This document shows positions 576-7,382 of a DNA stretch of 7,989 nucleotides, one piece after another (within the stretch, counting starts at the first letter, position 1; each line of letters starts with the position of its first letter). A program made the translations under genes and the position numbers. Under the pieces are notes generated by a model. The model was not told the origin of the DNA. It saw only the letters and a program-made list of their open reading frames with translations, and made no database searches. This DNA comes from a virus (taxonomy: Duplodnaviria; Heunggongvirae; Uroviricota; Caudoviricetes), in IMG/VR virus record IMGVR_UViG_2671180360_000012, one strand, 5' to 3'.

Positions 576-1610
576 GTGACCGTGAGAGCACTACTGACCC
601 CTGAAATTGCCCCGCGTATGGGGATCGTATTGTTCAGGCCAGGTTCAGAGCTGATGCCCCTGTTTATGCAGGGGCGTGTCCTGCTGGAGCCTGAGCCGGA
701 ACGTTATTCATCTTTCGCCAGTGGTGCCGTTCCGGCGGCATCACAACCGCTGGCGGATGATCCTGCCGTTCCGGCGGCATCACAACCGCTGGCGGATGAT
801 CCTGCCGTTCGGGCCGTGTTCCGCAATGAGGCAGTGATCCGTCGTGCTGGTGGCGTGGAATGTCTTGAAAGCTGGTTACTTCGTGAAAAAGGCTGCCAGT
901 GGCCTCATTCCGACTGGCACAGCGAGAACATGACCACAATGCGACACGCTCCGGGTGCAATCCGTCTGTGCTGGCACTGCGATAACCAGCTGCGCGATCA
1001 GTTCACGGAACGGCTGGAATCAATGGCAACGGATAACTGTGCCCGCTGGGTGTTGTCTGTTGTGCGTCGGGATCTCGGTTTTGATGACAGTCACGTTGTG
1101 ACAATGCCGGAACTGTGCTGGTGGCTGATTCGTAATGATCTGGCGGATGCCTTACCGGAAAGTGCAGCCCGTAAGGCACTGAGATTACCGAAGCCTGTTG
1201 TGCCGTCTGTTACCCGGGAAAGTGACCTTGTGCCTTCGGTTCCTGCCACCAGCATCATCCAGGATAAGGCGAAAAAGGTGCTGGCGCTGAAAGTGGATCC
1301 GGAGTCGCCGGAGTCTTTTATGTTACGCCCAAAACGTCGCCGCTGGGTTAATGAAAAGTACACGCGCTGGGTTAAGACACAGCCGTGTGCATGTTGTGGA
1401 AAGCCAGCTGATGATCCGCATCATCTGATAGGCCATGGTCAGGGTGGAATGGGTACAAAAGCGCATGACCTTTTTGTGCTGCCTTTGTGCAGAAAACACC
1501 ACGACGAACTGCATGCGGATACCGTGGCATTTGAAGAGAAGTATGGCTCCCAGCTGGAGCTGATATTTCGTTTTATCGATCGCGCACTGGCGATTGGTGT
1601 GCTGGCCTGA
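576..1610 (+). CDS. DUF968-family phage protein (YdfU-like) with a C-terminal HNH-like Cys/His motif
   Basis: A 344-codon ORF sits directly between the antirepressor-like gene and Q. The C-terminus carries [44 protein letters not shown], and there is a second CxxC (CWHCDNQL) mid-protein. The start is uncertain: GTG at 576, GTG at 582 (GAGGTG 4 nt upstream), or ATG at 615 are all possible. It contains a 2x39-bp tandem repeat. Confidence 0.7.
725..802 (+). repeat. Perfect 39-bp direct tandem duplication (2 copies) inside the DUF968 CDS, in-frame, encoding a repeated 13-aa unit
   Basis: Positions 725-763 and 764-802 are identical (tgccgttccggcggcatcacaaccgctggcggatgatcc). The next 8 nt (803-810) start a third copy and then diverge. 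The protein reads ...[31 protein letters not shown]... Confidence 0.95.
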
Positions 1611-6596: not shown

Positions 6597-6605
6597 CAAA
6601 CTACT
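6597..6605. repeat. IS1 target-site duplication, left copy (CAAACTACT)
   Basis: These 9 bp immediately flank the IS1 end at 6606 and are identical to 7374-7382. Confidence 0.9.
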
Positions 6606-6620
6606 GGTAATGACTCCAAC

Positions 6621-7124
6621 TTATTGATAGTGTTTTATGTTCAGATAATGCCCGATGACTTTGTCATGCAGCTCCACCGATTTTGAGAACGACAGCGACT
6701 TCCGTCCCAGCCGTGCCAGGTGCTGCCTCAGATTCAGGTTATGCCGCTCAATTCGCTGCGTATATCGCTTGCTGATTACGTGCAGCTTTCCCTTCAGGCG
6801 GGATTCATACAGCGGCCAGCCATCCGTCATCCATATCACCACGTCAAAGGGTGGCAGCAGGCTCATAAGACGCCCCAGCGTCGCCATAGTGCGTTCACCG
6901 AATACGTGCGCAACAACCGTCTTCCGGAGCCTGTCATACGCGTAAAACAGCCAGCGCTGGCGCGATTTAGCCCCGACATAGCCCCACTGTTCGTCCATTT
7001 CCGCGCAGACGATGACGTCACTGCCCGGCTGTATGCGCGAGGTTACCGACTGCGGCCTGAGTTTTTTAAGTGACGTAAAATCGTGTTGAGGCCAACGCCC
7101 ATAATGCGGGCAGTTGCCCGGCAT
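6621..7124 (-). CDS. insB: IS1 insB' reading frame (transposase catalytic part, expressed as the InsAB' fusion by -1 frameshifting)
   Basis: The 167-codon frame ([29 protein letters not shown]...) matches my recollection of IS1 InsB. Its stop codon lies inside the terminal inverted repeat. Confidence 0.9.
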
Positions 7125-7318
7125 CCAACGCCATTCATGGCCATATCAATGATTTTCTGGTGCGTACCGGGTTGAGAAGCGGTGTAAGTGAACTGCAGTT
7201 GCCATGTTTTACGGCAGTGAGAGCAGAGATAGCGCTGATGTCCGGCGATGCTTTTGCCGTTACGCACCACCCCGTCAGTAGCTGAACAGGAGGGACAGCT
7301 GATAGAAACAGAAGCCAC
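7043..7318 (-). CDS. insA: IS1 InsA (transposition inhibitor / DNA-binding protein, 91 aa)
   Basis: The product is [91 protein letters not shown], with a zinc-finger CxxC...CxxC and a helix-turn-helix. It overlaps the insB' frame at the frameshift window. Confidence 0.95.
7061..7067 (-). other. IS1 programmed -1 ribosomal frameshift heptamer (AAAAAAC on the coding strand)
   Basis: The + strand reads gtttttt at 7061-7067, which is AAAAAAC on the - strand. It lies in the insA/insB' overlap. Confidence 0.8.
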
Positions 7319-7373
7319 TGGAGCACCTCAAAAACACCATCATACACTAAATCAGTAAGTTGGCAGCATCACC

Positions 7374-7382
7374 CAAACTACT
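7374..7382. repeat. IS1 target-site duplication, right copy (CAAACTACT)
   Basis: Identical to 6597-6605 and directly abutting the IS1 end at 7373. Confidence 0.9.

Follow-up and report, generated by a model that had tools for sequence, protein, structure and literature searches.

A rare and apparently young in-frame tandem duplication in a DUF968 gene carried by a DLP12-like lambdoid prophage

A repeated segment within a prophage gene

A DUF968 gene in a prophage of one Escherichia coli assembly contains a 39-nt segment that is written twice in succession, which raises the questions of whether the second copy is real, how common and how old it is, how it arose, and whether it matters to the protein. 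The stretch of DNA analyzed here (the window, 7,989 nt) is the entire contig CYDK01000068.1 of assembly GCA_001285005.1, and it covers the late-regulatory and lysis part of a DLP12-like lambdoid prophage. The genes are arranged in the order KilA-N (3' part), DUF968, quuD, a porin gene (minus strand), essD, rrrD, rzpD, bor (minus strand), ybcV, ybcW, IS1 and ylcI. The KilA-N gene (1-574) is cut by the 5' end of the contig, which probably ends at sequences that several prophages of the genome have in common. An intact 365-aa OmpC-like porin gene (PF00267; 2201-3298, minus strand) separates quuD from the lysis cassette; the copy of this porin gene in the K-12 DLP12 prophage (nmpC) is interrupted by an IS element.

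The start of the DUF968 gene was fixed at a GTG codon (582) by the RefSeq annotation of the single-copy orthologue WP_001360050.1, giving an open reading frame of 1,029 nt whose stop codon ends at 1610. The product matches Pfam DUF968 (PF06147) over aa 175-341 with 271.6 bits against a gathering cutoff of 27.8 (E 3.9e-81), together with a weak match to HNHc_6. Of the 204 positions that vary in the gene, 147 are third positions of codons in the plus-strand frame. The features that concern us are as follows.

582-1610, plus strand: DUF968 / His-Me-finger (HNH-like) prophage gene, 342 aa here and 329 aa in nearly all relatives (from the ORF list, Pfam, RefSeq and codon-position bias)
725-763, plus strand: first copy of the 39-nt unit, which with the last base of G48 codes for A49-P61 (13 aa)
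764-802, plus strand: second copy, 100% identical to the first, coding for A62-P74; it abuts the conserved AVRAVF flank and aligns to the single copy of the homologues
803-810, plus strand: third occurrence of the octamer TGCCGTTC, the other occurrences being at 725-732 and 764-771
759-774, plus strand: novel junction, GATCC-TGCCGTTC-CGG, diagnostic of at least two copies

Both direct reading and a script showed that positions 725-763 and 764-802 hold the same sequence, TGCCGTTCCGGCGGCATCACAACCGCTGGCGGATGATCC. In the script, each base equals the base 39 positions downstream without a break from 725 to 771 (47 positions), and the period-39 stretch therefore runs from 725 to 810; Tandem Repeats Finder (TRF) reported 725-814 with period 39, 2.3 copies, 98% matches and a score of 173. 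The chance of 47 matches in a row at one offset is approximately 4^-47 per position, so that the repeat is far beyond chance. An earlier note on this DNA had described a perfect 39-bp tandem duplication, and its coordinates and identity proved exact. The same is true of its statement that the reading frame of the DUF968 gene is preserved: the unit amounts to 13 codons and repeats in frame, and the two-copy protein is 13 aa longer. What had been taken for a third copy that decays is instead the downstream octamer TGCCGTTC at 803-810, which already flanks the unit in single-copy alleles. The two-copy junction sequence, with GATCCTGCCGTTCCGG at its centre, is present in the window (locus L004) and in loci L002 and L003, and is absent from locus L001.

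Copy number among relatives

With the window gene as query, the best E. coli matches spanned 996 nt and not 1,035, and they aligned in two overlapping pieces; once one unit had been deleted from the query, these matches became one ungapped piece of 990 nt. Neither megablast nor blastn matched a 46-nt probe across the junction (745-790) to any of 5,426 complete E. coli genomes, and a 46-nt control probe lying within one unit matched 2,276 records of the same set at 2,980 places. The junction 24-mer was absent from three contig collections (genome, viral and metagenome), the single-copy span was found in all 30 phage records listed, and in all 80 IMG/VR loci the gene has 329 codons and no more than one unit. 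Apparent junction matches that a sensitive-mode probe returned from the phage collection were rejected, being two-piece joins of partial matches from single-copy genes.

Protein comparisons gave the same picture. Homologues down to 66% identity are 329-330 aa long, that is, they have one copy, and in the alignment with unit counts that the earlier note had proposed as a check, 43 homologues had one unit each and the 13-residue insert occurred only in the window protein. The single-copy form of the same protein was present in at least 1,000 contigs and the two-copy form in 3, carriers amounting to less than about 0.3% of the contigs with this protein. Exact-sequence look-ups in a collection of 15 billion proteins returned neither the 0-copy (316 aa) nor the 3-copy (355 aa) form. 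Exact look-ups likewise returned no two-copy version of six other protein backgrounds, a weak negative in that these backgrounds are mostly rare cluster representatives. The comparisons point to one copy as the ancestral state, and to the two-copy allele as derived, rare and recent; the 342-aa DUF968 proteins in the databases are best regarded as rare length variants of the 329-aa protein and not as a separate family.

That the event is recent, as had been proposed from the perfect identity of the copies, is borne out by the nearest relatives, the closest complete genomes, which are 99.9% identical to the window over 7.2 kb and yet have one copy of the unit. What sets the window apart from them is the duplicated unit, an inserted IS1 element and, over 7,173 nt, 5 SNPs. 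Two of these differences are given here.

6606-7373, transposase genes on the minus strand: IS1, 768 bp, with a 9-nt target-site duplication, CAAACTACT, at 6597-6605 and 7374-7382
701, plus strand: synonymous SNP, GAA against GAG in L001, 24 nt upstream of the duplication and the sole in-gene difference from L001

The IS1 element sits between ybcW and ylcI. Because it is missing from the closest complete genomes, its insertion appears to be recent, like the duplication. A Shigella source, to which the IS1 element might have pointed, was rejected, since the contig belongs to an E. coli assembly. As for the SNP, each of the 42 best complete genomes has exactly one mismatch, whose position was checked in L001 alone. 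Most single-copy alleles (68 of 81) have A701. A lone in-gene SNP at 24 nt from the duplication has a chance probability of approximately 0.07 with 5 SNPs in 7.2 kb, and A701 may reflect chance, a co-converted marker, or a mutation from the same repair event.

The suggestion that copy number varies among related prophages holds in a narrow sense: it does differ, but only between one copy (nearly always) and two (very rarely). The locus resembles the coding VNTRs and contingency loci of bacteria and phages in having an in-frame tandem repeat whose copy number differs between strains. It differs from them in that there are two states, the expanded one very rare, that frame switching is absent, and that the unit is not of low complexity. 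States 1 and 2 alone were found, with no copy-number series, and a 39-nt unit is always in frame, so that neither frame nor expression would be switched. On the sequences sampled, we see no allelic series, and we regard the locus as unlike a VNTR or contingency locus.

Origin of the duplication

Single-copy alleles contain TGCCGTTC twice, 39 nt apart and with 31 nt between. In 59 of the 81 single-copy alleles the arrangement is TGCCGTTC, the window's own 31 nt, TGCCGTTC and GGGC, and most of the other 22 keep both octamers. The locus thus has the features by which slipped-strand events are recognized: identical head-to-tail copies, a pre-existing direct repeat spaced by one unit, and near-identical single-copy siblings.

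We propose that the ancestral allele had the octamer TGCCGTTC at both ends of the 39-nt spacing, and that the nascent end, with the second octamer just copied, slipped back and re-paired with the first. The 31 nt and one octamer would then have been copied again, leaving unit, unit and the original downstream octamer, as is seen at 725-810. The process would be RecA-independent slipped-strand mispairing (microhomology-mediated duplication), and it would have inserted the second 13-aa unit just before the central domain. Lovett and others are said to have described RecA-independent rearrangements at short repeats in E. coli. Slipped-strand duplications of E. coli have the same anatomy, with head-to-tail copies, a unit equal to the repeat spacing, a breakpoint that is ambiguous within the microhomology and a single-copy progenitor; in the present case we infer the mechanism from that anatomy. 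Where the earlier note had left slippage and unequal recombination side by side, the octamers 39 nt apart in the single-copy alleles are a signature of slippage.

An 8-nt repeat within 50 nt is expected approximately once per kilobase by chance, and the TGCCGTTC site is therefore an ordinary accidental microhomology. The predicted DNA fold of 715-825 was not significantly more stable than that of shuffled sequences (z = -1.45), and we set aside hairpin-assisted slippage as unsupported by the local fold. Taking the evidence together, we think it highly probable that the DUF968 duplication in the window is a young and rare in-frame product of slippage in a DLP12-like lambdoid prophage of E. coli, and as such it is a clean case, from nature, of in-frame duplication templated by microhomology.

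In a perfect tandem repeat of 86 nt, deletion should be far more frequent than duplication at an 8-nt repeat, and this by itself would make for few and young carriers. Because the repeat is prone to deletion and the segment contains conserved residues (described below), two-copy alleles should stay rare and short-lived. The extra copy is most likely neutral or mildly deleterious.

Three carriers of the same allele

NCBI lists the exact 342-aa protein under 4 accessions, and it is encoded on contigs of 3 assemblies: GCA_001285005.1 (the window), GCA_013704905.1 and GCA_049822625.1. The surroundings of the two-copy gene are different in each carrier. Downstream of it are quuD and the porin gene in the window; a 115-aa Q protein, an NA37-family gene and an HK97-type head module in L002; and a 250-aa antiterminator and another lysis cassette in L003. 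With the duplication removed, the three genes differ pairwise at 16-26 positions, all synonymous and none non-synonymous, a pattern that speaks for strong purifying selection on the DUF968 protein.

Each carrier also has near-identical single-copy relatives. L003 shows no difference from the single-copy loci L005 and L008 within the gene and at most one over 3 kb, the window has one in-gene difference from the single-copy L001, and L002 differs from the single-copy L007 at three sites. The three two-copy alleles are mutually identical over gene positions 58-314. Judging from these haplotypes, we consider two or three independent duplication events most likely: recurrent slips at a fixed site, on three synonymous-site haplotypes and in three prophages, would account for the carriers, and the same allele can arise repeatedly because the slip site fixes the product. 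To our knowledge, recurrence on three haplotypes has rarely been documented for a natural prophage gene. With the same product on three prophage haplotypes, the locus could be used, on a small scale, to weigh recurrent mutation against patchy recombination in mosaic lambdoid prophages.

The duplicated segment in the protein

The duplicated segment had been read as a Pro/Ala-rich interdomain linker. It is indeed rich in Pro and Ala, and it does lie between the small N-terminal beta module and the central domain, but it is more constrained than this description would imply. In the motif V-P-x3-Q-P-L-A, the P, Q and P residues are invariant in 44 of 44 aligned sequences, and the L, A and following D are nearly so. 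The length of the segment is constant in the 43 homologues, and it therefore shows neither the poor conservation nor the variable length of a free linker.

AlphaFold2 models were obtained for both forms. In the single-copy protein, aa 41-60 are predicted with moderate confidence (pLDDT of approximately 70), and PLAD forms a short helix. The two-copy model has a pLDDT below 50 for aa 44-65 and is less confident over the N-terminal 65 residues, the helix being kept in the copy that adjoins AVRAVF; the drop in confidence may come partly from missing alignment depth over the insert. Because of the invariant residues and the constant length, we regard the segment as a conserved connecting element that joins the small N-terminal beta module to the central Cys/His-rich domain, and not as a freely evolving spacer. 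The conserved P-x3-QPLA-[DE]-[DE] segment is a minor lead for the study of uncharacterized DUF968 proteins.

Alternative explanations

We weighed four other accounts of these observations. Draft assembly is an obvious concern, since all three carriers are draft short-read assemblies with contigs of 8-79 kb, and the junction occurs in no complete genome; on this account the true copy number would be one. The copy number is indeed taken from the assemblies, but three independent assemblies share the identical junction, within differing flanking haplotypes and prophage contexts, and we therefore consider an assembly or sequencing artefact very unlikely. In addition, the whole repeat (86 nt) is shorter than usual reads, and an 8-nt direct repeat is not enough to lead a de Bruijn assembler to a spurious 39-nt tandem copy. 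The opposite idea, that two repeats are an ancient and fixed architecture of the family, draws on a weak AVP/AVR resemblance at the unit boundary and on nothing else. The earlier note had said that its reading would fall if all homologues had two diverged copies; one unit was found in all 43 aligned homologues and in every sampled DNA allele, and the copies are 100% identical to each other, against differences of 2-3% between alleles elsewhere, so that we regard an ancient architecture as ruled out for practical purposes. A more serious competitor to recurrence is a single duplication event whose product was passed among the DUF968 alleles of co-resident lambdoid prophages by short-patch gene conversion. 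The carriers are identical over gene positions 58-314, so that no trace would be left by a patch of up to 300 nt, and an E. coli genome may have up to 6 DUF968 copies, which means that donor and recipient can share a cell. A701, 24 nt from the duplication, is in all three two-copy alleles but not in L001, as co-conversion would have it; it is also the majority state among single-copy alleles (68/81), however, so that it is no donor marker, and we rejected it as decisive for a single origin. Against a single origin there is also the lack of a common two-copy haplotype that could have served as donor (none in 5,426 complete genomes), and each two-copy allele is known from only 1-2 samples. We consider gene conversion the less likely of the two, though a possibility to be taken seriously, and our preference for recurrence is clear without being strong.

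It might also be asked whether recurrent slippage, if that is the source of the allele, yields variation that is put to use, either as a contingency or VNTR locus or through selected doubling of a docking motif, P-x3-QPLA-[DE]-[DE], that alters activity or partner binding. Such a role would suit the family-invariant residues within the unit, the in-frame duplication, the strong purifying selection (16-26 synonymous against 0 non-synonymous differences between carriers) and the occurrence of the same allele in three prophages. It fits poorly with the restriction to states 1 and 2, exact look-ups having returned no 0- or 3-copy form and no two-copy form of the six other backgrounds, and with the frequency of carriers (below approximately 0.3% of contigs with the same protein), among which no lineage has expanded. 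With a unit length divisible by 3 there would be no on/off switch of expression, and the two-copy AlphaFold2 model, with its lower confidence in the N-terminal 65 residues, gives no hint of a gain. We therefore hold functional copy-number variation to be improbable, and no function is indicated for the extra copy. It would be equally surprising if the TGCCGTTC repeat were a true mutation hotspot and the doubled P-x3-QPLA-[DE]-[DE] a functional short linear motif such as a docking site; were this so, prophages would be sampling, in the two-copy allele, a variant that arises again and again and brings a gain or change of function, and not neutral noise. The preferred reading remains that of a real, recent and rare in-frame duplication, which belongs to an ordinary class of mutation and is of little importance by itself.

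The minus-strand open reading frame

An open reading frame on the opposite strand overlaps the repeat.

664-960, minus strand: antisense shadow ORF, not a gene, judged by the lack of a Pfam match, the changes in its translation and the stops

It had been explained as an artefact of the repeat, which is correct in that it is non-coding and incorrect as to its source. We rejected it as a gene on three grounds: it has no Pfam match, its translation changes approximately 14 times more than the sense translation across 84 alleles, and internal stops interrupt it in 2 of the 84. The set consists of 81 natural single-copy alleles, the rest having been reduced to one copy. In their one-copy form, 82 of these 84 alleles still have 99 open codons in the antisense frame, so that the repeat does not create the ORF and only lengthens it. 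The ORF at 664-960 should stay unannotated.

The DUF968 protein and its variants

Within the His-Me finger (HNH) superfamily, DUF968 has been assigned to group 7, with DUF1364/YbcO (PDB 3g27) (PMC5714182), and Gram-positive DUF968 members are described as having an Orf-like DNA-binding domain fused to HNH (PMC4118853). The protein described here shares with the DUF968/DUF1364 group (YdfU of the Qin prophage; YbcO of DLP12, PDB 3g27; PMC5714182) the same Pfam domain, here at aa 175-341, the motif C-x-CC ... DDPHH ... C-x2-HH-x2-LH, and the nin-region site between RusA/KilA-N and Q (PMC5714182). It differs from the group in that the window allele has 13 extra residues upstream of the part covered by Pfam.

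In the 44-sequence alignment, C269, C271, C272, H281, C303, H307 and H311 are invariant and H280 and H306 nearly so (at least 90%). This Cys/His set of the His-Me finger and zinc site is conserved in DUF968 proteins, which align weakly to YbcO (3g27) over the same region. When the family profile was compared with PDB sequences, YbcO was the sole match, a weak one (E 0.31) over the Cys/His region, and a Foldseek search of PDB gave nothing below E = 1, with a faint resemblance to Cap5 (HNH). We assigned no function by fold, given that Foldseek found no significant PDB match and the profile search only YbcO at E 0.31. We know of no biochemical function for the enterobacterial 329-aa DUF968 proteins.

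The central domain contains a further group of such residues (window 895-990, aa 105-133), in which C105, H109, H113, C130 and C133 are invariant and H132 nearly so. From its residues, this set resembles the C-terminal His-Me finger/zinc motif, and it may be a second, degenerate finger that lies outside the Pfam DUF968 model.

We also note two kinds of unusual DUF968 protein among the sequences collected. Three singletons (P0016, P0017 and P0018, of 526, 476 and 406 aa) have much larger in-frame internal duplications of approximately 77-197 aa, which either are real, having arisen when paralogous prophage copies recombined unequally, or are chimeras made during assembly. Four other singletons (P0020, P0024, P0025 and P0034) are 584-587-aa fusions of DUF968 to the downstream antiterminator (PF03589). 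Because the DUF968 and antiterminator genes are only approximately 14 nt apart in L003 (compare 10001-11795), these fusions probably stem from read-through after stop loss or a frameshift, or else from sequencing errors.
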